DNA of 35,729 nt from a virus. Made by a program: the position numbers and the translations under genes. The notes beneath the pieces were generated by a model. That model saw only the letters and a list, made by a program, of their open reading frames with translations. It had not been told where the DNA came from and searched no databases. Of this stretch, positions 1,962 to 35,729 are shown piece by piece; position 1 is the stretch's first letter, and each line of letters starts with the position of its first letter. Location of the stretch: IMG/VR virus record IMGVR_UViG_3300045988_155769; one strand, 5' to 3'.

Positions 1962-1979
1962 TAAAATCACTCCCAATTA

Positions 1980-15242: not shown

Positions 15243-15611
15243 ATGGCAGCCGCTCAAGAAACTAAAAAATCAAAAAAGAGATTATCCGGTACAAGAGGGA
15301 AAATCTATAAAAGTTTAAAAGAGCAATTAGAACTTGCTGATAATTATAACGATTACACAGAGGATCTATTAAGAGATTACATTACGATGTATGATACCAA
15401 ATGCAAACTCGCCCAGGACATCGAAGATAGAGGTGTATCTTTGGAATATGACAACGGCGGTGGACAAAAAGGTCGTAAGAGCAATCCTAGTATTGATCTT
15501 ATGAATCGTACGAATGCACAAATGCTAAAACTACTTGATGCACTTGGATTAAAGCCGTCAAAGATGCTTACAAAATCGCCAGATGATGGTGATGATGATG
15601 ACGAGTTGTAG
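15243..15611 (+). CDS. terS: Terminase small subunit, P27 family
   Basis: The sequence LLRDYITMYDTKCKLAQDIEDRGVSLEYDNGGGQKGRKSNPSIDLMNRTNAQMLKLLDALGL matches the P27-family pattern. The position upstream of terL supports this. Confidence 0.85.
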   Translation: MAAAQETKKSKKRLSGTRGKIYKSLKEQLELADNYNDYTEDLLRDYITMYDTKCKLAQDIEDRGVSLEYDNGGGQKGRKSNPSIDLMNRTNAQMLKLLDALGLKPSKMLTKSPDDGDDDDEL

Positions 15612-17256: not shown

Positions 17257-17271
17257 GAAAGGTGGGATTTT

Positions 17272-19145: not shown

Positions 19146-19159
19146 TTGGAGGGATTTTA

Positions 19160-20275
19160 ATGAAAAACAAGGATTTAGAAACTATTACAAAAGATGAATT
19201 AAAAAGTAAAGCATTAAATGCTATCAGAGAAGGAAAAGCCGAAGAATTCGTGGATGAAATCACAAGTTATTTTAATGTATTAGCAGATGAGGTTAAGGCA
19301 GAATATGAATCAGCAATCGCAAGTAATGACAAAGAAATATTATCAAAAAGAGGTGTTAGAGTATTAACATCAGTCGAGGAAAAATATTATAAATCATTAG
19401 CAAATGCTATGAAAACAAAATCAGCATTAACTGATATTGAAATGCCAAGAACAATTATTGATAGTGTGTTCGATGAATTAGAACATGATCATGAATTGTT
19501 ACAAAAAATTAATTTCCAAAATGTTACAGGTATTACAGAAATCATTGTTCGCAATGGTGATGTAGAAGCAGCATGGTGGGGTGCTTTAACAGATCAAATC
19601 AAAAAACAATTAGCATCAGCATTTAAGAAAATTACAACTGATGCTAAAAAGTTATCAGCATATATTCCTGTTGCTAAAGCACATTTAGATCTTGGACCTA
19701 CATATCTTGATATGTTTGTAAGAAGATTCTTACTAGAATCATTATCAATTGGTCTTGAAAATGCTATTGTTACAGGTGATGGTAAAGATAAGCCAATCGG
19801 TATGGATAGAGACCTAAAAGGTAGTGTTGTAGAAGGTGTATATCCACAAAAAACAGCAAAAGAAATTACTGATTTAGATTTAGTTACATTAGGTGGTTTA
19901 ATGGCTGATTTAACTAATGATGGTAAGAGAAAAGTTGCAAGTGCTTTATTTATCGTTAACCCATACGATTATTATTCTAAAGTATTACCTAAAATTTATT
20001 ATCGTACAGATGATGGACGTTGGGTAAATAATTTACCATTCCCTATCGAATTTGTACAATCATGCGAAGTTGCTAAAGGTAAAGCAGTTATCGGTATTGG
20101 TAAAAAATATTTCCTAGGTTTAGGCTCACAAAACAAAATTGATAAATCAGAAGAATATCATTTCCTAGAAGATGAAACTGTATATCTTGCTAAATTATAT
20201 GGTACAGGTATGCCATTAGATAATACATCATTCATCTATCTTGATATTTCTAAAATTGCAACACCAACTGTTTAA
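19160..20275 (+). CDS. Major capsid protein (HK97 fold)
   Basis: Position after the protease, a 371-aa length and a coiled N-terminal delta-like domain. Confidence 0.85.
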   Translation: MKNKDLETITKDELKSKALNAIREGKAEEFVDEITSYFNVLADEVKAEYESAIASNDKEILSKRGVRVLTSVEEKYYKSLANAMKTKSALTDIEMPRTIIDSVFDELEHDHELLQKINFQNVTGITEIIVRNGDVEAAWWGALTDQIKKQLASAFKKITTDAKKLSAYIPVAKAHLDLGPTYLDMFVRRFLLESLSIGLENAIVTGDGKDKPIGMDRDLKGSVVEGVYPQKTAKEITDLDLVTLGGLMADLTNDGKRKVASALFIVNPYDYYSKVLPKIYYRTDDGRWVNNLPFPIEFVQSCEVAKGKAVIGIGKKYFLGLGSQNKIDKSEEYHFLEDETVYLAKLYGTGMPLDNTSFIYLDISKIATPTV

Positions 20276-20296
20276 TGAAATGCGAGGTGATAGATC

Positions 20297-20614
20297 ATGG
20301 AAAAATCGCTAAAAGAGAAATTTCCATATTTTGAAGAAATCAAAAGACACTTGGCTATCACTTGGGATGATGAGGGCACTAACCTTACAATAAGAGATTA
20401 TATAATTGATGGACAGAATCACCTTAAAACTATTAGTGGTGATTCCGCCATCGATTTTAATACCGATATAGAAGCAAAAAGATTATTAAAAGAATATTGT
20501 AGATACGCCAGAAATTATAGTATTGAAGCATTTAATCATAATTTCCAGGACGATCTATTGAGGTTTCAAATAGCACATGCCGTTGACGATTATGGTAAAA
20601 CACCAGACGTATAA
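20297..20614 (+). CDS. Head-tail connector (gp6-like)
   Basis: Position and size; conserved aromatic and arginine-rich centre. Confidence 0.6.
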   Translation: MEKSLKEKFPYFEEIKRHLAITWDDEGTNLTIRDYIIDGQNHLKTISGDSAIDFNTDIEAKRLLKEYCRYARNYSIEAFNHNFQDDLLRFQIAHAVDDYGKTPDV

Positions 20615-20912
20615 CGATGGTATTTTGAAATATTATTCTTTGACACCAAAATATAATGCTTCTAAAAAGAAAATCGGTGATGAAAAAACTTATAAAGGCA
20701 AATTAAATTATGAATTAGCATATAAAAGGCAGCAAGATTATGACTTTGCAGAATCTAAAAGTAAAAAGCTTGATATGAAAGTAAAGACACCTAAAATTGC
20801 ATTTAATACAGATTATATTATTGAGTTAAATAATGAATTCTATGAGTGTTATTTATGCGAAGATAGTGACAAATTTAGTAATTATCTTTATTTACAGAAG
20901 GTGACATTATGA
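20577..20912 (+). CDS. Head-tail adaptor / head closure protein
   Basis: Position in the connector cluster. The start may be the ATG at 20592. Confidence 0.55.
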   Translation: MPLTIMVKHQTYNDGILKYYSLTPKYNASKKKIGDEKTYKGKLNYELAYKRQQDYDFAESKSKKLDMKVKTPKIAFNTDYIIELNNEFYECYLCEDSDKFSNYLYLQKVTL

Positions 20913-21253
20913 CAGATGAAAAAATAGTTAATAAGTTAATAGAAATCGGATACGAGCCATTTCAATATGATGCGGATCCAGATGAATTAAAAGGCTATAA
21001 CAAATATTGTGTTTATTATCCTCATAGCTTGAGAAAACAAGATAAACACATATTTCATCAAATAATAGAGTTTGTTTTTGTTAATGAAACAGAAGATTTT
21101 GACGAAATAGCAATAATCGACGCGTTGGAAGAAACAGGTCTTTTCTTTGACGATGGTGATTATGGAAGATTAAAAAAAGTTGCAGGTGGCGATATAGTTA
21201 ATTCATTAAATTTAAGGTTTGCACGTCCTAAAAAAAGAAAGTGTGTTTATTAG
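20909..21253 (+). CDS. Head-tail joining / tail completion protein
   Basis: Position; GAAGGTGA RBS. Confidence 0.5.
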   Translation: MTDEKIVNKLIEIGYEPFQYDADPDELKGYNKYCVYYPHSLRKQDKHIFHQIIEFVFVNETEDFDEIAIIDALEETGLFFDDGDYGRLKKVAGGDIVNSLNLRFARPKKRKCVY

Positions 21254-21256
21254 TTA

Positions 21257-21697
21257 ATGGAAACAATATTCAAATTAAAGGATGATGATCTTCAAAAATT
21301 AGTTGATTCTATCATGAAGATTCCAGATCTTGCAGAGAGCATCATGAATGATTATTTACATAATCAAGGTGCTAATATTGTCATTGACAAAATAACAGAA
21401 AGGATGCCAGTAGGTGTCAACAATAACAAAAAATATAAAGGCTATCCTCGAACTCATGCAAAGTATTCGTTAAGTTTAACTTTTACTAAAATGAATTTAG
21501 GATTCGCAATTAAAACATCACGATCACCATTTTTCGGGTATTTATATTTCCCAGCTTTTGGTGAAGGTACATCGAAACACAATGCACCTAACTTATTTTT
21601 TGAAGAAGGAGCAGAAAGTGCAAGAGAGCCAATCGTTGATGAATTAGCAAAATTGCTTGAAGGAAAAATTAAGGAGGGATTAAGCAATGGCAAGTAA
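21257..21697 (+). CDS. Tail-completion protein (HK97 gp10-like)
   Basis: Position immediately before the major tail gene, and size. Confidence 0.5.
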   Translation: METIFKLKDDDLQKLVDSIMKIPDLAESIMNDYLHNQGANIVIDKITERMPVGVNNNKKYKGYPRTHAKYSLSLTFTKMNLGFAIKTSRSPFFGYLYFPAFGEGTSKHNAPNLFFEEGAESAREPIVDELAKLLEGKIKEGLSNGK

Positions 21698-22283
21698 TAC
21701 ATTACAAGTTTTTGATGAATGTAAAATCACAGAAACACATGTTAAATCATACGATCGTAAAACCGGTGCTTTAGCAACAGAAAAGGCTACAAAATTAGGA
21801 TGCACAGGTAAACTAGAAATTTCATCAGAATATAAAACAATAGTTAAAAATTGTGAAGGAGTAGAACAAAAAAGTGTTAAGAAAATTACTAAATTAACAG
21901 GTACTATTTCAGTTCACATGCCTTTAGCAATTGCCAGAACTGTATTTGGCTTAAACAATGAAGGATTAAAACCAGGTGTTTATGGTATTTCTGATACAAC
22001 TAATACACCAGATATGTGCTTAACTACTAAAGCAATTGATTTATTTACTGATGAAGAAAAGTATATTTGTTTACCAAAAATTGCATTCACAACTGGTTTT
22101 GCAAAAACTATTGATAATACATCAGAGGAAGTTGCAGAGGTTGAATTAGAATTCAATGCTTATAAAGATGAAAATAACGAATTCTACTATGAAGCATGTG
22201 CTAGTGAAGTTGATAAGACATCAATTGGTGATAAATGGTTAGAAGAATTTACACCATCAATGGTTAAAGCTCCAACTGCGTAG
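21687..22283 (+). CDS. Major tail protein
   Basis: AAGGAGGG RBS, a strong terminator downstream and position before the chaperone/TMP genes. Confidence 0.75.
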   Translation: MASNTLQVFDECKITETHVKSYDRKTGALATEKATKLGCTGKLEISSEYKTIVKNCEGVEQKSVKKITKLTGTISVHMPLAIARTVFGLNNEGLKPGVYGISDTTNTPDMCLTTKAIDLFTDEEKYICLPKIAFTTGFAKTIDNTSEEVAEVELEFNAYKDENNEFYYEACASEVDKTSIGDKWLEEFTPSMVKAPTA

Positions 22284-22290
22284 TAAGTAG

Positions 22291-22321
22291 AGCCCTACAT
22301 TATGTAGGGCTTATTTTTTTT
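22291..22321 (+). terminator. Rho-independent terminator after the major tail gene
   Basis: agccctaca-tta-tgtagggct (9-bp stem), then a T-run. Confidence 0.85.
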
Positions 22322-22338
22322 AAAAGGAGGTATTTCAG

Positions 22339-22776
22339 ATGCAAGAAAACATTACTAATACAGAATCGGTTGTTAATGAAACACCAATTCAAAACGTAGA
22401 AACAAATGTTGAAAATAAAGAAATATCAAAAGAAGAAATTACGGAAACACCAAAAGTTGAAACAGAAAAATTACCTAAAAGGGCTATTAGATTAGAAGAT
22501 GGCACTATAATCAATAATCTAAAAATCACTTATAAGAATTTATTTGATTTTCAAAATCATTATGAAAATTCAAAGGATTTAATGGAAGCATTAGTTAAGA
22601 AGCAAACCTTTGAGCATGAGGTTATGGTCCAACTAATTTATGTTGGTTATTTAGGGACTAATCCAACTAATAAAATGTCGTATTTTGATTTTATAGATGC
22701 AATTCCTTTTGATTACAAAAGAGATATGACATTATTTAAAGAATTAACAGGATTAAATGCTGATTCAAAAAACTAA
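22339..22776 (+). CDS. Tail assembly chaperone (G-like, frame-0 product)
   Basis: Position between the major tail and tape measure genes. It ends on the slippery A_AAA_AAC. Confidence 0.8.
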   Translation: MQENITNTESVVNETPIQNVETNVENKEISKEEITETPKVETEKLPKRAIRLEDGTIINNLKITYKNLFDFQNHYENSKDLMEALVKKQTFEHEVMVQLIYVGYLGTNPTNKMSYFDFIDAIPFDYKRDMTLFKELTGLNADSKN

Positions 22777-22997
22777 AATTCCAAAAGTCTTTAAGAAAGG
22801 TAACCGCTAATAAGAAAGATAAATATCTTACAGCGACATTAGATATATGTACGATTGCGGATATTTATACACTTTATGTGCTCAATGCGAAAATACCTAG
22901 TGAGGACTTTTGGAATCAAGATATTAACTTTTTAGAATCTGTATATTTTAACAAAATGACATTTAATAAGTGGGAAAACAATCCGAAAGAGAGGTGA
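22339..22997 (+). CDS. Tail assembly chaperone G-T-like -1 frameshift product
   Basis: A_AAA_AAC at 22767-22773 is in the X_XXY_YYZ phase. The -1 frame is then open for 74 codons (LKFQKSLRKV...NNPKER), stopping at 22995-22997, just before the TMP start. Confidence 0.75.
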
Positions 22998-23001
22998 TTT
23001 T

Positions 23002-25815
23002 GTGGCGAGTAAAAAAACCGGAGTAGAATTGGAATTTAGTATTCTCGATGATGGTTTTACTAAATCTATTAGAGAAATGAATACCGCATTATCATCAATG
23101 AAAAAGGAACTTAATCTTGAGAACGAGGTTTTAAAAAATTCTGGTTCAACTGTTAATGACTATAAAAATAAATTACAGACATTAAAAGAACAAGAAGAAT
23201 TATCAAGACAAAAGGTTGAAGAAACTAGAGTAGCATACGAAAAAGTTAAAAATATAATGGGTGAAAATTCAGCAGAGGCAGCAAAGTATAAAAATAAACT
23301 TACTGATGCGGAATTGGAACATCAAAAGATAACAAATGCTATTGATAAAACAGAAAAAGCCTTAGTAGAACAGGAAGAAGCCTTAAAAGATAATGAAAGG
23401 AAAAGTCGAGAATTAAACTCTGCATACGGGACATTAACAACAACTATAAGCGACCAAAAAAGTCGTTTAGAAAGTTTAAAAAGGCAATATATTAGTACCG
23501 TTTTGGAACAGGGAAAAGGCTCTACTCAAGCAAAAAATCTAAAAAGTGAAATTAAAAATTTATCAGCAGAAATAAATAATAACGAATCGAAACTTAATTC
23601 CGCAACTAAAGAGGTTGAGAAATTTGGAGAAGCCGAAGAAGATGCGGGAAAAAAATCAATAACCTTTAAAGATCTAATTAAAGCCAATCTATTAAGTGAC
23701 TTTATTAAATCGGGATTAAAGGAAATTGTTAATCTTGCAAAATCTATTGGAAGTACGTTTGTAAATATAGGAAAGCAAGCTCTTACAAGTTATGCTGATT
23801 ATGAGCAACTAATCGGTGGAGTCGAAACTTTGCTTGGTGCTAAAGGTGCAAAGTCAATTGAAGAATACGCCGAATTAGTAGGTAAATCGGTCGATGATGT
23901 AAGAGGGGAATATGCTAAACTAGAACAATCTCAAAAATTAGTTGTAGCAAATGCAAATAATGCATATAAAACATCTGGATTAAATGCAAATCAATATATG
24001 GAAACAATCACAGGTTTTAGTGCAAGTTTGCTTCAATCATTAGGTGGCGATACCATTGAAGCCGCAAAAGTTGGTGATATGGCAGTTACTGATATGAGCG
24101 ACAATGCTAGTAAAATGGGTACATCAATAGAAAATATCCAAAATGCTTACCAGGGATTTGCTAAACAAAATTATACTATGTTAGATAACTTGAAATTAGG
24201 GTATGGTGGAACTAAAACCGAAATGGAGCGTTTGCTTTCTGATGCCGAGAAACTAACTGGTGTTAAATATGATATTAATAATTTAAGCGATGTATATAAT
24301 GCTATTCATGTTATACAGGGAGAATTAGGAATAACAGGAACAACGGCAAAGGAAGCAATGTTTACTATTTCAGGATCTGCATCAGCAACAAAATCAGCAT
24401 GGAGTAATTTAATTACTGGAATTGCAGATGATAATGCCGATTTCGATCAATTAGTAAATAATTTAATTGATTCATTAATTGGAACAGTAGATGAATCTGG
24501 TGAGAGAGTTGGAGGACTATTGAATAATATTCTTCCAAGAGTAAGCACTATAATTACAGGTATTAGTGATTTAGTTTTATCTTTTATTAATACCGTATTA
24601 CCAGAATTGTTGGCTCAAATAGGTCCAATAATCATTCAATTAATCCCACAATTGATGACAACTATAAATACTATAATTTCATCTATTATTACTTATATTT
24701 CTACTAATGCCACAAGTATATCAAATACAATTGTTACTATCGTCACTCAATTAATTACAATAATTGCGAATAATCTTCCAGGGTTTATTACGGCGATAAT
24801 TCAAATAATCACTGGTCTAGCACAATGTCTTGGGGAGCAATTACCTACATTAATTCCTATTATTATCCAGGGACTTATAGATGCAGTAATGGCTTTACTT
24901 GATAACATTGATCTTATAATAGATGCAGGAATACAACTAATTATTGGTTTAGCAGATGGGCTTATCCAGGCTCTTCCAATTTTAATAGAGAAAATTCCTA
25001 TAATAATTGATAAGCTAATAAATGCAATAGTCAATAATTTACCTAAAATTATTGAAATAGGAATTGTACTTATTATAAAATTAGCAGCAGGATTAATACA
25101 GGCGATTCCACAATTGCTTGCAGCAATTCCTAAAATAATAGGATCATTGATAGATGGTGTTAAAAAATGGTATAGTAATATATTTAATTTAGGAAAAGAA
25201 TTATTAGGCAAATTAATAAGTGGAATAGGTGGTATGCTTGGATCATTAGCAAATAAAGCGAAAGAAATAGGTAGTACTGTAATAAATGGTATTAAAAATG
25301 TTCCAGGTCAAATGCTAAATTGGGGTAAAGATATGATTAGTGGTCTTGCAAATGGAATTAAATCTATGGCTAATAAAGTTAAAGATGCAGTTAGTGGTAT
25401 TGCAAATAAAATCAAAAGTTTCTTGCACTTTTCAAGACCAGATGAAGGTCCATTGAGAGAATATGAAAGTTGGATGCCAGATATGATCAGCGGATTAACA
25501 TCTTCATTAAAAAAGGCTAGTCCAGATTTAATTGAAGAAACAAAGCAAATTGCAAGTTCATTAAATGATGCTATTCATTCGGGTGTATCTACTGATTTGA
25601 AATTTGATACAAGCATGTATAATGCTTATTCTAATGAATCAAATAGACCAACTAATAATATTACTGATACCTCATCATACGATCCAGGACAAGTTGCACC
25701 AATTTATCTAAATATCGAAAACTTTAATAATAACAGAGAACAAGATATTGAAGATTTATCAGAAGAATTAGAATTTTATAGAATGAAAATCAACTATGGA
25801 AAGGGGAATGCTTAA
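23002..25815 (+). CDS. Tape measure protein
   Basis: A 937-aa protein with an N-terminal coiled coil, a central hydrophobic I/L/G-rich region and a GTG start after GAGAGGTGA. Confidence 0.9.
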   Translation: MASKKTGVELEFSILDDGFTKSIREMNTALSSMKKELNLENEVLKNSGSTVNDYKNKLQTLKEQEELSRQKVEETRVAYEKVKNIMGENSAEAAKYKNKLTDAELEHQKITNAIDKTEKALVEQEEALKDNERKSRELNSAYGTLTTTISDQKSRLESLKRQYISTVLEQGKGSTQAKNLKSEIKNLSAEINNNESKLNSATKEVEKFGEAEEDAGKKSITFKDLIKANLLSDFIKSGLKEIVNLAKSIGSTFVNIGKQALTSYADYEQLIGGVETLLGAKGAKSIEEYAELVGKSVDDVRGEYAKLEQSQKLVVANANNAYKTSGLNANQYMETITGFSASLLQSLGGDTIEAAKVGDMAVTDMSDNASKMGTSIENIQNAYQGFAKQNYTMLDNLKLGYGGTKTEMERLLSDAEKLTGVKYDINNLSDVYNAIHVIQGELGITGTTAKEAMFTISGSASATKSAWSNLITGIADDNADFDQLVNNLIDSLIGTVDESGERVGGLLNNILPRVSTIITGISDLVLSFINTVLPELLAQIGPIIIQLIPQLMTTINTIISSIITYISTNATSISNTIVTIVTQLITIIANNLPGFITAIIQIITGLAQCLGEQLPTLIPIIIQGLIDAVMALLDNIDLIIDAGIQLIIGLADGLIQALPILIEKIPIIIDKLINAIVNNLPKIIEIGIVLIIKLAAGLIQAIPQLLAAIPKIIGSLIDGVKKWYSNIFNLGKELLGKLISGIGGMLGSLANKAKEIGSTVINGIKNVPGQMLNWGKDMISGLANGIKSMANKVKDAVSGIANKIKSFLHFSRPDEGPLREYESWMPDMISGLTSSLKKASPDLIEETKQIASSLNDAIHSGVSTDLKFDTSMYNAYSNESNRPTNNITDTSSYDPGQVAPIYLNIENFNNNREQDIEDLSEELEFYRMKINYGKGNA

Positions 25816-26504
25816 TGAATTATTTTATATTTATCAAGAATGGTAAGATGTACGATTCAAGGGACTATGGAATAGGTTGCGGTGGCTTCCCCGATATAGT
25901 TATTCCAAGAAAAAGAATAACAATTGAGTCATTACCTGGAAGGAGTGGATCCTTAACAAGTACAGACGATTGTTATGATAGTTATACAAAAGCCATTGAA
26001 TGTTACATGGAGGACGATGTATATAAAGATTTATCCTGGTTAAGTGGTAGTGGCGAGTTAGTATTATCAAATGAGTTAGAACGTGAATATGATGTGACTT
26101 TGAAAAATAATATTGAATTATCACAAATTGCTACATATTGGCGAAACTTTATTTTAAATTTTGAAGTTCAGCCATTTAAAAAGAGTAGAGATAAAAAGAC
26201 TCTAATCTATCGAGATAAAGAATTTATGTTTAGAATCGGTGGCAATGCGAGGGCATTACCAATTATCTATTTAACAGGTACTGGTGATATTGATTTAACT
26301 ATTAATGGAAAAACATTTAAAATAAAAAATTTAAAAACGACTATTATGATTGATTCCGAGTTACAAGTTGTGATGGAGGGTGAGGAAAATGCTCTTCCTA
26401 AAACAAATGGCGACTTTCCAGAATTAATTCCAGGTCTTAATAAATTTCAAATTACAGGTAATTTATTAAATATTAAGATCAAATATCAGGAAACTTATTT
26501 ATGA
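25815..26504 (+). CDS. Distal tail protein (Dit)
   Basis: Position directly after the TMP, and size. Confidence 0.7.
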   Translation: MNYFIFIKNGKMYDSRDYGIGCGGFPDIVIPRKRITIESLPGRSGSLTSTDDCYDSYTKAIECYMEDDVYKDLSWLSGSGELVLSNELEREYDVTLKNNIELSQIATYWRNFILNFEVQPFKKSRDKKTLIYRDKEFMFRIGGNARALPIIYLTGTGDIDLTINGKTFKIKNLKTTIMIDSELQVVMEGEENALPKTNGDFPELIPGLNKFQITGNLLNIKIKYQETYL

Positions 26505-28318: not shown

Positions 28319-29944
28319 GTGAATGGTGGGACAGCAGTATTAGTCAAAAGCGGTAGATCTAACTATGGTAGTGGATTTAACATTAACTTATATGTTTATC
28401 ATAAACAAGTCTATCAAGATATAGCCAATAACTACACTAGAGTCGGTTTAGGAATGTATGTTCAAACACCAGGAACAAATTATACGATTGCATGGACTGA
28501 TTTTGGTTCTTATATTGGAATTAGTGGTGTAGGAACAAATAATTTTTCAGCAGGAGTTAACTACCAAGGTGGAACTATTTGGCTTATTACCAATCAGGAA
28601 TTTAATGTTTATCACAATTCAGATGGTACAAGATGGATAGATATTATATGGTCTTGGGGAGTTAATTCATCTTGGGGACAATTCGTTAAACCTAGTGGTA
28701 GTTTTGGAACAGGATTAAATAGAATACCAAGAACATCATCAGTATCATGTACTGATTTTAATATCGGTAGTGCAGCAACAATAAATATTAATAGAAATTC
28801 AAGTTCATTTACTCATACACTTACTTATTCGTTTGGTAATCAATCAGGAACGATTGCTAATAAAACGGGAGCCACGAGTGTTGGATGGCAAACACCAACA
28901 TCTTTATTCTCACAAATACCAAATACAACAAGTGGATGGGGAACAATAACATGCTATACATATTCAGGTGATACTTTAATAGGTACATCAACTTGTAGAT
29001 TTAATGCTTATGTTGTTAATAGTAATCCTAGTGTATCAGTATCAATAGTTGATGCAAATGCAAAAACGAAGAATTTAACAGGTAATGAAAATAAACTTGT
29101 TAAATATTATAGTAATGCAAAAATTACTATAAATGCGACCGCATTAAACTCATCATCTATCAAAAGTTATTCTATAAAATGTGATGATGGTAAAAATTCT
29201 ACATCATCATCAGCAACATTTAATAAAGTTGAAAGTGGTAAGTTTACAATTGTGGTAACAGATAGTAGAGGACTATCCACGACTCTAAACGTTTCTAAAA
29301 CATTGATAGACTACATTAAGTTAGCCTTTACAGACGTAAAAGTTAAGAGAGAGTCATCTACATCGTCAAAAGTATATTTAACTTATACAGGGCAGTATTT
29401 TAGTAAATCATTTGGTGAATTATTAAATACATTATTAGTTCGTTATAGAACTAGAATAAAAGATGGAACTTGGAGTGCATATAAAGAATTAAATCCAACA
29501 ATTAATGATAAAACTTTTTCACAATCCAATTTCTTAATTGGCAGTGATTTTTCATATCATAATAATTATGAATTTGAAATTGTCGCATCTGATAAATTAA
29601 TAAGTGATAGTGAAACACTTATTAAAAGAGATATTAAAATGGGTGAGGGATTATTTGAAATAAGAAAAGAATTATTTGGTATTCATGGAACATTTGAATC
29701 CGATTCTAAACCGTTAACTCAAAAGGATCTAAATAGTTGTATTTCAAGAACATATTTTGCAACATGTATAAAATGTCATAATACACCAAATAATAGCGAA
29801 TTTGGTTATTTACTTAATATATCGAGAAATGGAACAGATGAAAGAGAATTGTATAACAAACAATTCTTTTTTGATGGGACATCTAACGATATTTATGTAA
29901 GAACTATGAATAATAAGTCCTGGTTAAATTGGATAAAAGTATAG
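28319..29944 (+). CDS. Baseplate / receptor-binding-associated tail protein (DUF859-like N-terminus)
   Basis: GTG start. The N-terminal SGRSNYGSGFNINLYV...YTRVGLGMYV is typical of siphovirus baseplate proteins, and the rest is S/T/N-rich beta sequence. Confidence 0.6.
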   Translation: MNGGTAVLVKSGRSNYGSGFNINLYVYHKQVYQDIANNYTRVGLGMYVQTPGTNYTIAWTDFGSYIGISGVGTNNFSAGVNYQGGTIWLITNQEFNVYHNSDGTRWIDIIWSWGVNSSWGQFVKPSGSFGTGLNRIPRTSSVSCTDFNIGSAATININRNSSSFTHTLTYSFGNQSGTIANKTGATSVGWQTPTSLFSQIPNTTSGWGTITCYTYSGDTLIGTSTCRFNAYVVNSNPSVSVSIVDANAKTKNLTGNENKLVKYYSNAKITINATALNSSSIKSYSIKCDDGKNSTSSSATFNKVESGKFTIVVTDSRGLSTTLNVSKTLIDYIKLAFTDVKVKRESSTSSKVYLTYTGQYFSKSFGELLNTLLVRYRTRIKDGTWSAYKELNPTINDKTFSQSNFLIGSDFSYHNNYEFEIVASDKLISDSETLIKRDIKMGEGLFEIRKELFGIHGTFESDSKPLTQKDLNSCISRTYFATCIKCHNTPNNSEFGYLLNISRNGTDERELYNKQFFFDGTSNDIYVRTMNNKSWLNWIKV

Positions 29945-30294: not shown

Positions 30295-31998
30295 ATGGAA
30301 GATCTTAATTTATCATTCGACGATATAGAGTTTTATAAAGGTACAAGTTTTTATGTTGCGGGTACTTGGAACAACACAACAAAGTATCATAATAACTCTA
30401 GCAGAATCGATGTAGTATCTCATAATGGTAATTCTTACACGGCTTTAAAGGATAATACAAATATAGAGCCCGGAACAGATAACACAGTATGGCAATTGAT
30501 GGCAAAAGCTGGCGATACTGGAACGATTGAGGTTGGGACAGTAGAAACAGTTGCAGCAGGTCAAAAAGCCACAGTAACAAACGTAGGAACGGCTCATAAA
30601 GCAAGATTAAACTTCAAAATACCAAAGGGCGAAGATGGCTCAACAGAAATTACTAATATCGACGAATTAGAAAATTATGTATATTATGGTGTAAGACGTA
30701 GAGTCAATCAAAATAGTTCAAGTGCCTGGGAAAGAACAGGAAGTGGAATTGGTAAAATAGCAAATGCTACTAAAAATGGCGATGCAGTAGTTAATGACTT
30801 TGATAATATTTATCCATGGTCAGATATAATTACTTGTAATGTAGATCCAAGCACAAATGAGGTCAAAGCATTTATTGGTGATCCAACCTTTGATTTTACA
30901 GGTAATAATGGCGAGGTAATGACACGAATTCCAGAGTTTTATTGGAAACGTTATGTAAAAGATGGATACGAATATATCAACATTTCAAGACACCATTTAG
31001 CAGATTATATTAAAAGTCCGGAATTCTTTGTTGGAAGATATGATGCAAGTTATGATGGAACATCGTTACATAGTGTTACTGGTCAAGTTCCAGAGGTACA
31101 AAGAAATATTGCAGCATTTAGATCTTTGGCAAAAGCAAAAGGTGATAAATGGTGTCAAATGGATTATCATTATTTCTTATTGCAAATGCTATATTTAGTA
31201 GAATATGCTGATTATAACTCACAAAGTAAACTTGGTAATGGTATTGTAGGATGTAGAGTTAGTGATGCTGATAAGGCATTAGTTGCAGAGAACAATACAA
31301 ATAGAATTATTATTAATACAAGTGCTGCTAATAGTTTTATTGTAGGTCAGCAAGTGAGCATAGGTACAAGTTCAGCATGGAATTGGACTGTAGCAAAAAA
31401 TAGAACAATTTTAAGCAAAGAGGCTTACAATAGTGGTGGAATAACAGGTACCGCAATAACCTTTGATGGAGATCCAGTAAATATTGCTTTAAATAATGTT
31501 TTATGGACGACAGGACAAAAATCAGGGCAATGTGATAGTTTAGGAATGAAATCAGGATGCTTGAATAATGATAGTAAACATGCTATAATATATCGTGGAA
31601 TCGAGAATATATTCGGTAATATATGGCAATTTGTTGATGGTATTAATATAAAAGAACATCAGTCTTATGTATGTACTAATCCAAGTGAATATGTATCTGA
31701 TACTTTTGCAGCTCCATATAAGAAATTAGGATATGCAAATTCAAACACAAATGGGTATGCGATGTCACTTGGATATGATAAAGAAAATCCTTTATTTGCA
31801 TTAACAACAGAAGTTGGAGGTGCAAGTTCTACTTATATGACTGATTATTATTATCAAAATACAGGAAATAGAATTGCTTTGGTCGGCGGCACTTATAGTA
31901 ATAGTACTAATGCCGGCTTGTGGTATTGGTATATGAGCAATACGTCTGGTAATGCGAGTTGCGGCATCGGGGCTCGTCTTCTTAAATACCAGGATTAA
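30295..31998 (+). CDS. Tail fibre / receptor-binding protein, the DGR target (variable C-terminal lectin-like domain)
   Basis: It carries the VR at codons for IALVGGTYSNSTNAGLWYWYMSNTSGNASCGIGARLL, ending 4 codons before the stop. The N-terminus has fibre-type motifs (GDTGTIEVGTVETVAAGQKATVTNVGT). Confidence 0.85.
   Translation: MEDLNLSFDDIEFYKGTSFYVAGTWNNTTKYHNNSSRIDVVSHNGNSYTALKDNTNIEPGTDNTVWQLMAKAGDTGTIEVGTVETVAAGQKATVTNVGTAHKARLNFKIPKGEDGSTEITNIDELENYVYYGVRRRVNQNSSSAWERTGSGIGKIANATKNGDAVVNDFDNIYPWSDIITCNVDPSTNEVKAFIGDPTFDFTGNNGEVMTRIPEFYWKRYVKDGYEYINISRHHLADYIKSPEFFVGRYDASYDGTSLHSVTGQVPEVQRNIAAFRSLAKAKGDKWCQMDYHYFLLQMLYLVEYADYNSQSKLGNGIVGCRVSDADKALVAENNTNRIIINTSAANSFIVGQQVSIGTSSAWNWTVAKNRTILSKEAYNSGGITGTAITFDGDPVNIALNNVLWTTGQKSGQCDSLGMKSGCLNNDSKHAIIYRGIENIFGNIWQFVDGINIKEHQSYVCTNPSEYVSDTFAAPYKKLGYANSNTNGYAMSLGYDKENPLFALTTEVGGASSTYMTDYYYQNTGNRIALVGGTYSNSTNAGLWYWYMSNTSGNASCGIGARLLKYQD
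31874..31984 (+). repeat. DGR variable repeat (VR)
   Basis: Aligns without gaps to 32122-32232 (offset 248). There are 13 mismatches, all opposite template adenines. Confidence 0.9.
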
Positions 31999-32007
31999 GT
32001 GGGGGAA

Positions 32008-32026
32008 TGGGGGCGACCAGCCCCCA
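32008..32026 (+). promoter_or_regulatory. GC-rich hairpin 10 nt after the target-gene stop
   Basis: tgggggc-gacca-gccccca (7-bp stem). Confidence 0.6.
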
Positions 32027-32034
32027 ATATAAGA

Positions 32035-32050
32035 ATCGACGTAAGTCGAT
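32035..32050 (+). promoter_or_regulatory. Second hairpin with a GNRA-type loop
   Basis: atcgac-gtaa-gtcgat (6-bp stem, GTAA loop). Confidence 0.5.
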
Positions 32051-32121
32051 AAAATGTTTTTTGAAAATTAAAATATAGGGATTTGACATGTAGAGCGTCC
32101 GGTTTCGGTGAGGAGTTCACT

Positions 32122-32232
32122 TTGCTTTGGTCGGCGGCAATTATAATAATAATACTAATGCCGGCTTGTGGTATTGGAATATGAACAATACATCTAGTAA
32201 TACGAATTACAACATCGGGGCTCGTCTACTTA
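32122..32232 (+). repeat. DGR template repeat (TR)
   Basis: It has 34 adenines, 13 of them substituted in the VR. All 77 non-A positions are identical. It reads as 11 AAY codons in the VR frame and has no start codon of its own. Confidence 0.9.
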
Positions 32233-32393
32233 TATGAAAAAATAAATTTTATTACATGTCATCTTCCTTACCACTTGGTAAAAATTAGTCGTTCTGGGCT
32301 GGGCTAGTAGGTTTATCTCTTGAATATAGAATTTCTCGAAAACTCGGCAGACAAATATAAGAATTCCAGAAATATCAGAGGAAAAGATCAAAA
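32122..32393 (+). ncRNA. DGR template RNA (TR plus 161-nt TR-RT spacer)
   Basis: Inferred from DGR architecture. The noncoding spacer between TR and RT contains a small hairpin (ttacc-actt-ggtaa, 32268-32281). The 5' boundary is unknown. Confidence 0.5.
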
Positions 32394-33452
32394 ATGAAAA
32401 GAGTAGGTAATATTTACGAAAAAATAATTCAATTAGGAAATATTGAATCAGCAGTAATGCATGCCGCAAAGGGTAAATCAAAAAGAAAAAACGTGGAGAA
32501 AATATTAGATTCCCCAACTTATTATGCTATGCAAGTTCAAAAGATGCTAAAAGAACACACTTATATTCCATCGCCTTATGTTGAAATGAAAATACTGGAC
32601 GGAGCAAGAAAAAAGGAAAGGATTATATATAAGCCTCAATTCTATCCTGATCAAGTAGTACATTGGGCTTTGATGCTTCAACTGGAGCCAATACTTATGA
32701 AAGGAATGTATGAATTCTGTTGTGCATCAGTTAAAAATAGGGGAATATTGTATGGTAAAAGGCATCTTGATAAGATCCTGGTAGATGATCGTAAATATAC
32801 CAAATATTGCTTGAAACTTGATGTAAAAAAGTTTTATCCATCAATTGATAAGACTATATTAAAACAAAAGTTTAGAAAAAAAATAAAAGATCGAGAAACA
32901 TTATGGCTTATTGATTTAATAATTGATAGTTCTGATGAAGGTGTTCCGATTGGAAATTATACATCACAATGGTTTGCTAACTTTTATTTGAGTGATTTGG
33001 ATCATTTTATTAAAGAAGAATTAAAAGTTAAATACTATGTTCGTTATATGGACGATATGGTGCTATTTTCTAATAATAAAAAGCAATTGCATAAAATAAA
33101 ATTAGCAATCGATGATTTTCTAGCAAAAGAACATTTAAGAATTAAAGAAAATTGGCAATTATTTAAAACAGATAGTCGTCCGTTAGACTTTTTAGGATAT
33201 AGATTTTATCGAGGGTATTCTACTTTAAGAAAAAGTAACTTTTTACGAATCAAAAGGCGAGCAAAGAAAATATCGAAAAAGAAAGAACTTAATTTTCATG
33301 ATGCGGCATCAATGTTATCCTATTCTGGATGGTTGAAACATTGTAATTCATACAATTATCAGCAAAAATACATTAAGCCGTATATCAATTACAATAAATG
33401 TAAGGAGGTCGTTAGTAATGAAAGTAAGAAGCGACAGGCTTCCTCAAAATGA
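32394..33452 (+). CDS. DGR-type reverse transcriptase
   Basis: Motifs are YCLKLDVKKFYPSI, the DGR-specific GVPIGNYTSQWFANFYL (I/LGxxxSQ), the YVRYMDDMVLF (YxDD) motif and LDFLGYRF. The N-terminal NIYEKI...AAKGKSKRKNV is typical of DGR RTs. Confidence 0.92.
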   Translation: MKRVGNIYEKIIQLGNIESAVMHAAKGKSKRKNVEKILDSPTYYAMQVQKMLKEHTYIPSPYVEMKILDGARKKERIIYKPQFYPDQVVHWALMLQLEPILMKGMYEFCCASVKNRGILYGKRHLDKILVDDRKYTKYCLKLDVKKFYPSIDKTILKQKFRKKIKDRETLWLIDLIIDSSDEGVPIGNYTSQWFANFYLSDLDHFIKEELKVKYYVRYMDDMVLFSNNKKQLHKIKLAIDDFLAKEHLRIKENWQLFKTDSRPLDFLGYRFYRGYSTLRKSNFLRIKRRAKKISKKKELNFHDAASMLSYSGWLKHCNSYNYQQKYIKPYINYNKCKEVVSNESKKRQASSK

Positions 33453-33927
33453 TTTTGAAATCAATAATATTCAAGGCAACGAATGCAACGTTGTCTTTTT
33501 TGATACTAAAAATCATAAAGAGGAAAAAGATGAAAATGAAAATATATCATACGAATATGATGCATACAATATCAAAACAACTTATAGGAGCACGTTAGGA
33601 GCAGATATAAGCAAAAATTACGAAAAATGGTACAATTATGCTATCCAGTATGAAAAAGATGTTCTAGCAACAGAAATAAGGGCGAAAAGAAACGAATTAT
33701 TGAATGAAAGCGACAAAGAATTGGCTATTGACAGATTTTCATTTGAATTTCCCGAAGAAATAACAATGTTAAACATCTTACAAGTAATCAAAAGTTTTTT
33801 CTCTGTTTTATCAAGTATAACTAATGGTAAATGGGCTAAATATCGTCAGCAATTAAGAGATATTACTAAACAGGAGGAATTTCCATATAATGTCGAGTTC
33901 CCTAAAAAGCCCACAGATAATGAATAA
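33418..33927 (+). CDS. Tail-fibre assembly chaperone-like protein
   Basis: RAKRNELLNESDKELAIDR and WAKYRQQLRDITKQEEFPYNVEFPKKP resemble the Tfa-type C-terminal signature (W..YR..L......P....P..P). A strong AAGGAGG RBS lies inside the RT 3' end, giving a 35-nt overlap. Confidence 0.5.
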   Translation: MKVRSDRLPQNDFEINNIQGNECNVVFFDTKNHKEEKDENENISYEYDAYNIKTTYRSTLGADISKNYEKWYNYAIQYEKDVLATEIRAKRNELLNESDKELAIDRFSFEFPEEITMLNILQVIKSFFSVLSSITNGKWAKYRQQLRDITKQEEFPYNVEFPKKPTDNE

Positions 33928-34623: not shown

Positions 34624-35598
34624 ATGGAAGATGAAAAAAATGTTGAAATCGTAGAAGAAAATACAGAATTAGAAATCCAAACTACATTTAATGAGGATGG
34701 ATTAGATGTATTAGTCGAAGACGGTACAATAGAAAATGAAAATGCAGAGGAGCCAGAAGGTATTGGAGCCGGCGAAAACTTTTCAATGAGAACAAGTAAG
34801 CCAGGTGCAGGTAATAAGTTCTTTATTACACGAAGCAGAGGCGGATATTCTACATGTATTCAGGGAAGCCCAACAGATAGTAAATGTAATGTACTTGCTA
34901 ACTGTGTAGGATATGCTTGCGGACGTTTCAATGAAATAATTGGAGCAATGAAATATCCATCATTAAATTGTAATGCAGAAAACTTTATTGAAAGAGCAAG
35001 AAATACCTATGGATTAGAAATATCACCAGTTCCTACATTAGGTGGTATTATGGTATGGCAAAAAGGATCTACATTATCAGGTGGTGATGGTGCAGGACAT
35101 GTTGCTATCGTTGAAAAGATTATTGATAGTAATACTATTTATACAAGTGAATCAGGTTATGGATCAAGTGCTTTCTGGAATAGTACAAGAAGCAATAGTA
35201 ATGGTAGATGGGGATTAGGTAGTGGTTATACATTTAGAGGATGTATTGTTAATCCCGCTATTGGTAAAGTAACCGCTCCAACATCTAATAGTGCGAATCC
35301 ATTTCCAGGTGTATCTGATGAGGAACTAGCAAGACGTGTTTGGTCCGGTGAATTTGGAAACGGCACAACTAGACAAGAGAGATTAGGATCAAGATATGCA
35401 GCAGTTCAAGCACTTGTTAATAGAGGTGTAGGAAAGCCAGGAACAACAAGTAATGTACCTTATGCAGGTGTATCTGACGAGGAATTAGCACGTCGTGTTT
35501 GGCGAGGCGAATTTGGAAATGGAGCAACTAGAAGACAAAAACTAGGATCAAGATATGCAGCAGTTCAAGCACTTGTTAATAGAGGTGTAGGTAGATAA
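34624..35598 (+). CDS. Endolysin: CHAP-type amidase/peptidase with two C-terminal Cpl-7-like (CW_7-like) wall-binding repeats
   Basis: Catalytic Cys context is NVLANCVGYACGRF and His context is AGHVAIVEKI. The repeated unit is GVSDEELARRVW.GEFGNG.TR...LGSRYAAVQALVNRGVG. GGAGG lies upstream of the ATG at 34624. Confidence 0.8.
   Translation: MEDEKNVEIVEENTELEIQTTFNEDGLDVLVEDGTIENENAEEPEGIGAGENFSMRTSKPGAGNKFFITRSRGGYSTCIQGSPTDSKCNVLANCVGYACGRFNEIIGAMKYPSLNCNAENFIERARNTYGLEISPVPTLGGIMVWQKGSTLSGGDGAGHVAIVEKIIDSNTIYTSESGYGSSAFWNSTRSNSNGRWGLGSGYTFRGCIVNPAIGKVTAPTSNSANPFPGVSDEELARRVWSGEFGNGTTRQERLGSRYAAVQALVNRGVGKPGTTSNVPYAGVSDEELARRVWRGEFGNGATRRQKLGSRYAAVQALVNRGVGR
35308..35591 (+). repeat. Two copies of a 125-bp coding repeat (35308-35432 and 35467-35591, period 159 bp)
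   Basis: Direct comparison shows the last 49 nt of each copy are identical, and the codons upstream differ mostly at synonymous sites. Confidence 0.9.
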
Positions 35599-35602: not shown

Positions 35603-35640
35603 AGAGGTAATGACACAAATGTCACTACCTCTTTTTTTTT
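35603..35640. terminator. Bidirectional rho-independent terminator (endolysin on +, RHH-like gene on -)
   Basis: agaggtaatgaca-caaa-tgtcactacctct (13-bp stem, one mismatch), followed by T9 on the plus strand and a U-rich tail on the minus strand. Confidence 0.8.
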
Positions 35641-35729
35641 GCCTTTAAATCCTCTATGGCATTTCTAATAAATTGAGTTTGAGTTAATCCTTCCTCGGCT
35701 AATAATTTATCAAGTTCTTCCTTTTCTTC
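35631..35729. repeat. Terminal direct repeat, right copy (identical to 1-99)
   Basis: Base-by-base identity, read directly. Confidence 0.95.

Follow-up and report, generated by a model that had tools for sequence, protein, structure and literature searches.

Diversity-generating retroelements (DGRs) share a number of hallmarks. Their reverse transcriptase (RT) features the motif [I/L]GxxxSQ, which replaces QGxxxSP of group II introns, together with YxDD. They contain a repeat pair of template repeat (TR) and variable repeat (VR), in which differences are (almost) restricted to TR adenines. The VR lies within a protein-coding target, mostly at its 3′ end, and the TR is non-coding and located beside the RT gene. 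Transfer is one-way from TR to VR, with the TR staying constant and the VR changing. Target sites typically comprise an IMH-like 3′ constant segment of high GC content and, 3′ of the VR, a GC-rich hairpin or cruciform. The variable proteins display their variable residues on a C-type-lectin (or Ig) fold. Most DGRs, though not all, encode the accessory protein Avd (or HRDC, MSL or CH1), and Avd is required by the DGR of Bordetella phage BPP-1.

The BPP-1 DGR has the order mtd-VR / avd / TR / brt. The order target - TR - RT was termed 'Architecture A1' by Wu et al. (2018; PMC5758913) and accounts for 75 of the 372 DGRs surveyed (29% according to the paper); the same survey found one RT lineage that is entirely without avd. 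DGR targets of phages are typically tail fibres (PMC8144416), and DGRs are known from human-gut phages, including crAss-like phages, Hankyphage and Faecalibacterium prophages (PMC8008677, PMC6199706, PMC11792537, PMC8144416). In the study that discovered the RT-associated RNA motifs (Weinberg et al. 2017; PMC5737381), only RT-10 was assigned to a DGR, and it was speculated that other RT motifs might work in DGRs as well.

The region 30295–33452 of the window (the whole stretch of DNA that was analysed, 35,729 nucleotides) is with high confidence an active DGR of a temperate, low-GC, siphovirus-type gut phage, which rewrites the tip of a tail-fibre gene. The element is a textbook DGR of a well-known system, in a variant without the helper protein Avd. 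The TR and its structured flanking RNA were shown to sit between the tail-fibre gene and the DGR-type RT (Table 1). The locus shares the gut-phage origin and the tail-fibre target with the human-gut phage DGRs mentioned above, but differs in belonging to a temperate siphovirus-type genome of ~35.6 kb (GC 29.5%), for which a DNA-level search of INPHARED found no near relative.

Table 1 Features of the DGR locus and its neighbouring genes
Feature	Position	Strand	Characteristics
Large DUF859 tail protein	28319–29944		Upstream of the target
DGR target gene, tail fibre/receptor-binding-type protein	30295–31998	+	567 aa; PHROG 5302 'tail protein', E = 3.7e-58
VR	31874–31984	+	Encodes residues 528–564 of the target; mutable positions 31891–31966
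3′ constant GC-rich VR segment, IMH-like	31967–31984	+	TCGGGGCTCGTCTTCTTA; VR-specific T at 31980, TR A at 32228
GC-rich hairpin/cruciform	32008–32026	+	TGGGGGC-GACCA-GCCCCCA; DNA fold
Terminator-like hairpin and T-rich tail, after target gene	32035–32050	+	ATCGAC GTAA GTCGAT; consensus scan only
Candidate weak sigma-70-like promoter	32046–32074	+	TCGATA-17-TAAAAT; 9/12 consensus matches
Upstream arm of long-range duplex bracketing the TR	32078–32092	+	GGGA..TGACATGTA; pairs with 32253–32267 in MFE fold
TR	32122–32232	+	Non-coding, intergenic; 34 A; 11 AAY codons in VR frame
TR-side strand of putative template:primer duplex	32229–32235	+	CTTATAT; complementary to 32355–32361; A32228 directly 5′
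Downstream arm of long-range duplex	32253–32267	+	TACATGTCA..TCTTCC; MFE fold
RT-18 RNA (Rfam RF03021), structured TR-RT spacer	32269–32361	+	61.9 bits (gathering score 41.3); full-length model match
DGR reverse transcriptase	32394–33452	+	352 aa, pI 9.75; RVT_1; PHROG 1423, E = 1e-112
Tail-fibre assembly chaperone-like gene	33418–33927	+	Pfam Phage_tail_APC, E = 1.3e-12; PHROG 'tail fiber assembly'

The TR/VR pair and its variation across metagenomes

VR and TR align without gaps over 111 positions, of which 98 are identical and 13 differ. At all 13 differences the TR base is A (32140, 32146, 32152, 32178, 32185, 32192, 32196, 32202, 32206, 32209, 32211, 32212 and 32228), and the changes comprise ten A>G, two A>T and one A>C. 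With 77 non-A positions in the TR, the chance of 13 randomly placed differences hitting nothing but its 34 adenines was calculated to be P = 3.1e-8 (hypergeometric). Read in the VR frame, 7 of the 11 AAY codons of the TR are altered (N>T, S, S, Y, S, S, G). An earlier reading of the sequence alone (the sequence-only reading) had given the same alignment and codon figures, every one of which was reproduced, and had matched the differences to adenine-specific mutagenic retrohoming. The T at 31980, opposite A32228, recurs in 10/10 VRs of this phage and also in L054, a locus of a more distant relative; judged from these sequences, the difference is a fixed TR/VR boundary marker in the 3′ constant segment and not a product of mutagenesis, so that 12 differences are left that look like mutagenesis. 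The TR directly follows the VR after a gap of 137 nt, and another 161 nt separate it from the RT ORF. The window contains no second repeat pair of this kind.

The population test set consisted of ten TR/VR pairs of the same phage from independent metagenomes. In this set, 132 of 133 mismatches were located at TR adenines, the single exception being a T>G in L135, and 32 of the 34 TR adenines varied. The mean pairwise difference was 17.4 nt for the VRs compared to 0.96 nt for the TRs, and the TR was almost constant across the 10 metagenomes plus L140. In this test, which the sequence-only reading had asked for, the polymorphism is almost confined to positions opposite TR adenines, with constant TRs and hypervariable VRs. 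At the level of the compared sequences, randomisation was shown to be limited to TR adenines, and the asymmetry between constant TR and variable VR argues for a transfer direction from TR to VR. All five point changes observed in the TRs (at TR positions 33, 41, 90 and 93) were copied in the cognate VR. Substitutions are unevenly distributed in the ten pairs, with 56% A>G, 26% A>T and 18% A>C, which reflects some mix of RT bias and selection.

The pattern extends to more distant relatives, for which 253 of 261 mismatches in 19 further pairs were found at TR adenines. On the protein level, 15 members of the target cluster vary only at codons with a TR adenine, and adenine-free codons are constant. 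The 90% cluster of the target comprises 205 distinct sequences. VRs were wholly different between genomes that are 97–99% identical in the remaining target gene. Many contigs end within the VR, as is to be expected from within-sample heterogeneity. In sister phages, arrays of 3–10 alternative TR cassettes were observed.

The reverse transcriptase and the target protein

The RT features IGNYTSQ at residues 186–192 (nt 32949–32969) and YMDD at residues 218–221 (nt 33045–33056). Its best relative in the PDB is bRT of the Bordetella phage (8ub7, E = 5.4e-34, residues 2–317), compared to E = 7e-10 for the best group II intron RT. The bRT residues K29, R74, I76, I181, G182, Q187 and D215/D216 are kept in the alignment; their roles, including contacts to the template and the incoming nucleotide, have been described (bioRxiv 10.1101/2023.10.23.563531). 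Based on its motifs and its closest solved relative, the sequence places the enzyme among DGR-type RTs. An identity as group II intron, retron, Abi or DRT enzyme was rejected, with NCBIfam scores far under the cut-offs (group II 80.1 vs 300; Drt3a 75.8 vs 200; retron St85 62.4 vs 235) and RT-18 as the only Rfam match near the RT. Members of these families would be expected to reach the curated cut-off and to come with a context of their own, such as intron RNA domains, msr/msd or a defence effector. Matches in PADLOC represent generic RT similarity.

The target gene closes the series of structural genes in the tail module, with Prophage_tail and DUF859 tail genes before it and the tail-fibre assembly gene after it. 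Its ORF yielded no match in Pfam and NCBIfam. The AF2 model has a pLDDT > 90 for residues 129–567 and low confidence for the N-terminal ~128 aa; the confident C-terminal domain ends in the VR. The top PDB match of the model in Foldseek is TaqVP of Thermus aquaticus (5vf4, E = 1.4e-10, probability 1.00), with Mtd and TvpA among the next. TaqVP is also the sole sequence-level PDB match of the target (query 518–561 to TaqVP 337–380, the C-terminal regions), although identity is only ~14%, the TM-score is 0.32–0.45 and TaqVP comes from a bacterium rather than from a phage tail. In BFVD, 'tail collar fiber' proteins rank at the top, and the model also matches tail fibres of crAss-like phages. In the model, the hypervariable stretch of 20 residues (533–558) lies at the C-terminus of a C-type-lectin-fold tail protein. 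Position and fold suggest that the diversified face binds a host receptor, and continual variation of receptor-binding specificity is the expected biological outcome. The assembly chaperone-like gene overlaps the 3′ end of the RT gene and is kept after the RT in relatives. Its product has a pI of 5.0, is not Avd-like and probably serves the target protein.

These results agree with the sequence-only reading, which had placed the VR at the C-terminus of a tail fibre, predicted a fold of the type found in DGR variable proteins and assumed a DGR-specific RT with IGNYTSQ and YMDD following the TR. Its interpretation of the locus as a DGR is supported by RT type, adenine-only TR/VR differences, tail-protein target and the population test.

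DNA and RNA elements compared to BPP-1

VR and TR have TCGGGGCTCGTCT in common, followed by the fixed T/A marker, and the 3′ constant segment is unchanged in 10/10 VRs. By analogy with the IMH of BPP-1 (PMC3240598, PMC5758913), this segment presumably acts as an IMH-like counterpart. A conserved G5 run (32001–32005) precedes the GC-rich hairpin, which was the best match at the same place in 17 of 21 loci, down to ~28% target identity. In relatives, the hairpin starts 17–25 nt past the VR end and has a stem of 5–8 bp, with compensatory stem variants in L004, L013 and L034. A hairpin resembling the terminator-like structure is also present in relatives. The candidate promoter might start the TR RNA at ~32080.

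The first hairpin of RT-18 (UACC-ACUU-GGUA, 32269–32280) is followed by AAAAA, and the 3′ end of RT-18 (ATATAAG) is complementary to the 3′ end of the TR; the RT gene starts 32 nt further downstream. Of 20 related loci, 18 have RT-18 in this place, and it sits between TR and RT in 19 DGR loci. From this sequence context, the orphan Rfam motif is assignable to Avd-less DGRs, as their spacer RNA. The long-range duplex bracketing the TR covaries over 15–16 loci, with a mean of 9.9 bp for cognate arms compared to 7.6 bp for permuted pairings; none of 20,000 permutations came up to the observed figure. Likewise, none of 20,000 permutations did so for the duplex between the TR 3′ end and the RT-18 3′ end, for which the covarying pairs include CTTATCT/AGATAAG, TCTTGTA/TACAAGA, TCTTAAT/ATTAAGA and TTCTTTAA/TTAAAGAA. 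The covariation suggests that the two duplexes mirror the stop and primer duplexes of BPP-1.

By homology to BPP-1, a transcript from ~32080 would fold such that the two long-range arms form the 'stop' duplex and the 3′ ends of TR and RT-18 form the template:primer duplex. The RT would cis-prime off the spacer RNA around A32228, copy the TR and misincorporate opposite adenines. The resulting cDNA would replace the VR, with the 3′ junction inside the shared GC-rich segment 31967–31979 and guided by the GC-rich hairpin. For cDNA synthesis, priming nucleotide and integration junction, this proposal follows the BPP-1 model.

A search for PF05635-type or other accessory genes in flanking, early and middle genome ORFs (structural-module ORFs 15583–26504 left out) was negative, and the small proteins adjoining the cassette are acidic to neutral (pI 5.0–6.6). 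Since Avd is essential in BPP-1 and was not found here, the RNP must differ in some respect. Accessory-less DGRs are, however, a recognised architecture (PMC5758913), and the missing Avd therefore does not exclude membership. With no Avd in the scanned ORFs, the element is assigned to the known accessory-less 'target-TR-RT' Architecture A1, with which it shares the gene order and the lack of avd, HRDC, MSL and CH1; that survey did not deal with RNA elements of the kind reported for this locus.

Compared to BPP-1, the locus shares a tail-fibre target with C-terminal VR, adenine-specific transfer from TR to VR and an RT that aligns with bRT over its full length, with contact residues and YMDD aspartates kept. 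A GC-rich 3′ constant VR segment followed by a GC hairpin (PMC3240598) and a distal duplex around the TR combined with a TR:spacer duplex at its 3′ end (bioRxiv 10.1101/2023.10.23.563531) are also common to both. It differs in the lack of avd, in the TR directly following the VR, in RT-18 instead of RT-10 as spacer RNA, in the hairpin loop of 5 nt (GRNCA) compared to the 4-nt GRNA tetraloop, and in target sequence and VR class, the target being closer to TaqVP than to Mtd. The likeness to BPP-1 drawn by the sequence-only reading stands for the mutagenesis pattern, with the lack of Avd and the hairpin loop as minor corrections.

Alternative explanations and significance

An ordinary duplication whose copies drifted apart through point mutations or gene conversion, beside an RT that has nothing to do with it (a retron, Abi, DRT or group II intron enzyme), is a virtually negligible explanation. 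The RT does show weak sub-threshold matches to group II, retron and Drt models, which is usual for any RT, but all NCBIfam matches are far under their cut-offs (e.g. 80 bits vs 300 for group II), and among solved relatives bRT leads by a wide margin. The adenine-exclusive asymmetry (P = 3e-8, and 132/133 mismatches across samples) and the presence of DGR-type RNA and hairpin also argue against it. That the element is a fossil, with the adenine pattern recording past activity of a DGR that no longer works in this phage, is very unlikely. The RT ORF is unbroken and keeps its catalytic and template-contacting residues; the hairpin, RT-18 and both RNA duplexes are intact as well. Nearly identical target genes with entirely different VRs, recent TR point mutations already present in the VR and the many contig breaks in the VR, as predicted by within-sample heterogeneity, all point to ongoing activity, although activity of one genome is not measurable from a single assembly and Avd was not found in the scanned ORFs.

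The DGR could also be real and its target not the receptor-binding protein, but another tail-associated or lysogeny-expressed carbohydrate-binding protein, leaving the host range unchanged. The target matches no Pfam or NCBIfam family, its N-terminal 128 residues were modelled poorly, and the upstream DUF859 protein could be the primary receptor-binding protein. We nevertheless regard this as improbable: the gene stands at the end of the structural genes in the tail module, with a tail-fibre assembly chaperone after it; it falls into a PHROG annotated 'tail protein'; tail collar fibre proteins and tail fibres of crAss-like phages are its matches in BFVD; and phage DGRs typically target tail fibres (PMC8144416).

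The element is a clean and evidently active example of a mechanism that is already known, from a gut phage that has not been cultivated, and its main use lies in the annotation of tail fibre, TR, VR, RT and RNA. The phage population would keep re-tuning its receptor-binding tip. Of greater value are two side results, the assignment of RT-18 and the TR cassette arrays. Tentatively, we suggest a DGR lineage that does not depend on Avd. In this lineage, the RNA with RT-18 (stop duplex, hairpin and A-run, TR:spacer primer duplex) may by itself organise cis-primed, adenine-mutagenic reverse transcription, and the same machinery may serve the TR cassette arrays of sister phages, each cassette with its own upstream arm. 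If this is true, one RT could exchange the VR scaffold as well as hypermutate it; functional arrays would add cassette switching to adenine mutagenesis. The compact two-component system of RNA and RT could serve to test Avd-free DGR reverse transcription and is relevant to DGR-based directed-evolution tools.

The phage is associated with MAGs labelled as low-GC Bacilli/'Mollicutes'. On the DNA level, the RT gene shows 67–70% identity over ~290 nt to the RTs of the crAss-like phages cr6_1, cr52_1 and cr60_1.

Adenine-directed variation of the VR

The template repeat (TR) and the variable repeat (VR), the latter located at the 3' end of the gene coding for a 567-aa tail protein (the target), align without gaps. 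As claimed in the sequence-only reading, 98 of 111 positions are identical, while all of the 13 differing positions are adenines in the downstream copy (A>G ten times, A>T twice and A>C once). The TR features 34 adenines, and chance alone would place all 13 differences on adenines with a probability of 3.1e-8. Also in agreement with that reading, the TR contains 11 AAY codons in the frame of the target ORF, seven of which are altered in the VR, and the ORF of the reverse transcriptase (RT) begins 161 nt past the TR and encodes the motifs IGNYTSQ and YMDD. The homology of TR and VR is lost sharply at both ends, and the two copies are the sole such repeat pair within the window.

Only 12 of the 13 differences, however, look mutagenic. 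All VRs examined, that of the related locus L054 (73% identity) among them, have T at position 31980, the counterpart of A32228 in the TR. This site lies within the 3' constant segment, after TCGGGGCTCGTCT, which is common to TR and VR. For both reasons, the difference was not counted as mutagenesis. The fixed A/T at this site behaves instead like the IMH/IMH* distinction of Bordetella phage BPP-1, in which IMH is the constant 3' segment of the VR.

The target cluster at 90% identity comprises 205 distinct sequences. In 15 of its members, the target body varies at few sites, none with more than two alleles, and these are mostly carried by the same few sequences. Residues 533–558 are hypervariable: 20 columns in this stretch show between two and ten states each. 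The set of varying columns coincides with the codons having an adenine in the TR, and the adenine-free codons A540, G541, L542, W543, W545, S551 and G559 are constant. At the DNA level, the window was compared with nine further contigs from independent samples, which were fetched from ENA/Logan by protein identity. TR adenines account for 132 of the 133 mismatches in the ten TR/VR pairs, so that the expected confinement of VR variation to adenines holds in assembled contigs. Variation was seen at 32 of the 34 TR adenines. The mean difference between loci is 0.96 nt for the TRs and 17.4 nt for the VRs. Five point changes in the TR (positions 33, 33, 41, 90 and 93; four loci) are all found in the cognate VR as well, indicating that TR-to-VR copying took place after those mutations arose. 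In the wider family (19 loci at 28–62% target identity), 253 of 261 mismatches are located at adenines of the downstream copy. Judged from the sequences of these contigs, directional copying from TR to VR and adenine-specific randomisation take place in natural populations.

The spectrum at TR adenines leans to G (A>G 74, A>T 34 and A>C 24 of 132 in the window and the nine further loci). This skew lifts the G + C content of the VR to 48%, compared to 38% for the TR and 29.5% for the genome, and may be caused by RT bias or by selection.

A flank-only pattern scan of IMG/VR yielded one contig (L140), which has an identical TR and ends inside the VR; the same scan of JGI metagenomes yielded no match. 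Contigs L001, L005, L021, L023, L024, L026, L027, L028 and L030 also end inside the VR. In contig L138 (4080–4190, protein P0125), VR and TR are collapsed to a chimera with deletion of a 248-nt interval, and at the VR of cluster member P0122 (564 aa) the encoded sequence is that of the unmutated TR. Assembly breaks and collapse are typical of a heterogeneous repeat, and the breaks in the VR, the L138 chimera and P0122 are probably effects of this kind. Genuine VR-TR recombination may be an alternative.

Reverse transcriptase, target protein and accessory proteins

The best solved relative of the RT is 8ub7 chain A (E = 5.4e-34, residues 2–317 against 3–313), followed by a group II intron RT (7e-10). 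Based on its chain numbering, 8ub7 is the RT of the Bordetella phage (bRT), since D215/D216 in YMDD as well as I181, G182 and Q187 in PIGSLTSQ are the residues named in bioRxiv 10.1101/2023.10.23.563531. According to the alignment, the catalytic aspartates and the bRT residues K29, R74, I76, I181, G182 and Q187, which touch the template base and the incoming nucleotide (bioRxiv 10.1101/2023.10.23.563531), are kept in the RT of the window. Comparison with NCBIfam models of group II intron, retron and Drt RTs resulted in scores far under the cut-offs and yielded no match to a DGR-specific RT. PADLOC reported generic RT similarity, again with no DGR-specific RT match. The protein matches PHROG 1423 'Reverse transcriptase' (1e-112). 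By its sequence, the RT is of the DGR type, with an active site predicted to be intact. No near relative of the phage was found in INPHARED, where weak RT similarity was limited to crAss-like phages.

The target has no Pfam or NCBIfam family and matches PHROG 5302 'tail protein' (3.7e-58). Its AF2 model, based on 68 homologues, has pLDDT values > 90 for residues 129–567. In a PDB structure search with this model, chains of 5vf4 (Thermus aquaticus TaqVP) were the only significant matches (E = 1.4e-10, probability 1.00). The next, non-significant matches include variants of Mtd, the BPP-1 target, and TvpA, which we take to be the other solved DGR variable proteins. TaqVP was also returned by sequence search, with the C-terminal regions of both proteins aligned. 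Comparison with predicted viral structures placed 'tail collar fiber' proteins and tail fibres of crAss-like phages at the top. The PHROG, structural and sequence matches support the earlier designation of the target as a tail-fibre protein with a C-type lectin fold, which presumably acts in receptor binding.

No Avd (PF05635, the accessory protein of BPP-1-type DGRs), HRDC or MutS-like protein was found with Pfam among the flanking ORFs and those of the early and middle genome. Small proteins encoded nearby have an acidic to neutral pI (5.0–6.6). Avd proteins are basic (PMC5758913), which argues against a cryptic Avd among these neighbours. Wu et al. (PMC5758913) surveyed 372 DGRs, of which 75 (given as 29%) are accessory-less 'target-TR-RT' cassettes, and noted an RT lineage without avd. 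The architecture of the window DGR is thus a known variant, and tail-fibre DGRs of gut phages are well documented (PMC8144416, PMC8008677, PMC6199706, PMC11792537).

RNA elements and the proposed retrohoming route

A hairpin past the VR is conserved in 17 of 21 related loci, beginning 17–25 nt past the VR end. Its usual form is G5-N3-GGGGGC-GRNCA-GCCCCC, and compensatory stem variants occur in loci L004, L013 and L034. BPP-1 retrohoming requires a GC hairpin/cruciform of such kind, and phage DGR hairpins generally have 7–10-bp GC stems and GRNA tetraloops, 4–34 bp from the VR (PMC3240598). The window hairpin differs from these in its loop of 5 nt. In most loci, a conserved G5 run (GTGGGGGAAT in the window) is located ahead of the GGGGGC stem, giving two G5 tracts per C5 tract. 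The extra run could possibly serve alternative pairing or protein/RNA recognition.

Between TR and RT, the Rfam RNA RT-18 (RF03021) was detected with 61.9 bits (gathering score 41.3). In 18 of 20 related loci, it is located a short distance past the TR. An overlapping sub-threshold match to RT-17 (34.3 bits, gathering score 40.4) suggests that both are related DGR spacer RNAs. The discoverers of the RT motifs linked only RT-10 to a DGR, that of BPP-1, and raised a DGR role of the other motifs as speculation (PMC5737381).

Comparison of 15–16 loci revealed two conserved, covarying long-range duplexes. Duplex (i) brackets the TR and is formed by an arm about 30 nt upstream of it (GGGA..TGACATGTA) and an arm just 5' of RT-18 (TACATGTCA..TCTTCC). 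It is contained in the MFE fold, and other loci feature the pairs TGATATGTA/TACATATCA, ATATAACGCGC/GCGCGTTATAT and TACAGCGTGC/GCACGCTGTA. Duplex (ii) joins the TR 3' end (CTTATAT) with the RT-18 3' end (ATATAAG) and covaries as CTTATCT/AGATAAG, TCTTGTA/TACAAGA, TCTTAAT/ATTAAGA and TTCTTTAA/TTAAAGAA. For each duplex, cognate pairing was above all 20,000 locus-pairing permutations. The TR-specific CUACU of the TR 3' end was also considered as a partner of the UAGUAG loop of RT-18. This option was rejected, because the loop is invariant while the TR ends vary (CTACTTA, CTATCTTA, CCACTTA, CATTCTTA); it is instead the RT-18 3' end that covaries with the TR end.

After the first RT-18 hairpin, UACC-ACUU-GGUA, comes an AAAAA run. 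The window RNA thereby has counterparts of the 'cPRT Stop' duplex of distal sequences in the BPP-1 RNP, of the adjacent stem-loop followed by adenosines and, in duplex (ii), of the template:primer duplex. All three kinds of element are known from the BPP-1 RNP and have been predicted for 207 DGRs that contain Avd. In most of 16 loci, an A is found directly 5' of duplex (ii) on the TR side (A32228 here) and directly after it on the spacer side (A32362 here), making A32228 the likely first templated base.

By homology, transcription would start from ~32080, and the spacer RNA would prime in cis at the TR:RT-18 duplex. cDNA synthesis would cross the TR and end at the bracketing duplex, the 3' junction of integration would fall within the shared GC-rich segment, and receptor specificity would be altered as the outcome. 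What we add here is the putative assignment of RT-18 to the DGR spacer RNA, together with sequence-level evidence that an Avd-less lineage keeps a BPP-1-like RNA architecture. The searched literature does not describe RT-18 in DGRs, which is no proof of novelty.

Cassette arrays in sister loci and genome context

Unlike the window with its single TR, loci of a sister sub-family with ~53–56% target identity (L015–L018, L022, L025, L029, L067, L069 and L071; phages and prophages) contain 2–10 TR-like cassettes of ~111 nt between VR and RT-18/RT, spaced 150–160 nt. Including the VR, this amounts to 3–11 repeat copies per locus. The cassettes have conserved flanks, divergent interiors and a conserved central segment (GGCTTGTGGTATTGG). 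A copy of the upstream arm motif (GGGATTTGRTGTGT) stands ahead of most of them, and a single downstream arm and a single RT-18 follow the last cassette. The VR of L025 is templated by the second cassette (all 13 mismatches at adenines), those of L016 and L017 by the sixth (13/15 and 11/13), that of L069 by the last (11/14) and that of L022 by the first, while the L015 VR is chimeric, derived from two cassettes. These matches point to multi-template DGRs, in which cassette switching is combined with adenine mutagenesis. Divergence among the cassettes of L025 is too high for the arrays to be detected by Tandem Repeats Finder. The searched literature has no description of tandem arrays with alternative TRs, which does not prove novelty.

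Coordinates of features in the window and of cassette arrays in sister loci
Feature	Coordinates	Strand	Remark
Exact 99-nt direct repeat	1-99; 35631-35729		window ends
Large serine recombinase	543-1976	-	adjoins repressor-like gene
Repressor-like gene	2267-2698	-	
~36-nt repeat with AAAAAGTTGGGAAAA, three copies	2660-2695; 2701-2736; 3018-3053		divergent region between repressor-like and DUF739 genes
SpoVG homologue	5168-5464		
HNH endonuclease	7323-8144		
ParB-N-terminal/N6-N4 DNA methylase fusion	8919-10076		
Tyrosine recombinase	12402-13259	+	Phage_integrase and SAM-like N-terminal domain; mid early region, replication/modification module
Four tandem 24-nt units	14717-14832		GAAGATCCAAATGCTGATGGAAAC-like; 3' end of ORF 14448-14831
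Target	30295-31998	+	
VR	31874-31984		
G5 run	32001-32005 (32001-32014 with the GGGGGC stem)		
Hairpin TGGGGGC-GACCA-GCCCCCA	32008-32026		begins 23 nt past VR end
Duplex (i) arms	32078-32092; 32253-32267		
TR	32122-32232		
Duplex (ii) arms	32229-32235; 32355-32361		
RT-17 match	32264-32354		sub-threshold
RT-18	32269-32361		
RT	32394-33452	+	
134-nt direct repeat	35299-35432; 35458-35591		lysin gene
Array in L015	3974-5692		
Array in L016/L017	3941-5231		
Array in L022	3989-5292		
Array in L025	3989-5318		
Array in L029	3989-5461		
Array in L071	4959-5969		
Array in L069	4944-5540		

Because its ends share an exact repeat, the window represents a phage genome of ~35.63 kb, assembled as either a closed circle or a terminally redundant molecule. 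After the small terminase come, in this order, Prophage_tail, DUF859, a 112-aa ORF, target, TR and RT, then a gene resembling tail-fibre assembly chaperones, two genes for small proteins and one for a CHAP+CW_7 lysin. The DGR cassette is therefore flanked by the last tail gene and its chaperone. MAGs carrying related target genes are labelled Mollicutes, Bacilli, Bacillales and Clostridia; many stem from animal or human gut samples, and some of the contigs span 100–400 kb. These features are consistent with a temperate phage, whose hosts would be low-GC gut Firmicutes.

The small genome carries both a serine and a tyrosine recombinase, the latter in a replication and modification module that also holds SpoVG, the HNH endonuclease and the ParB-methylase fusion. 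The three ~36-nt repeats are possibly operator sites. The four tandem 24-nt units encode a D/P/N-rich repeat, and the direct repeat in the lysin gene (85% identity) corresponds to its two CW_7 cell-wall-binding repeats.
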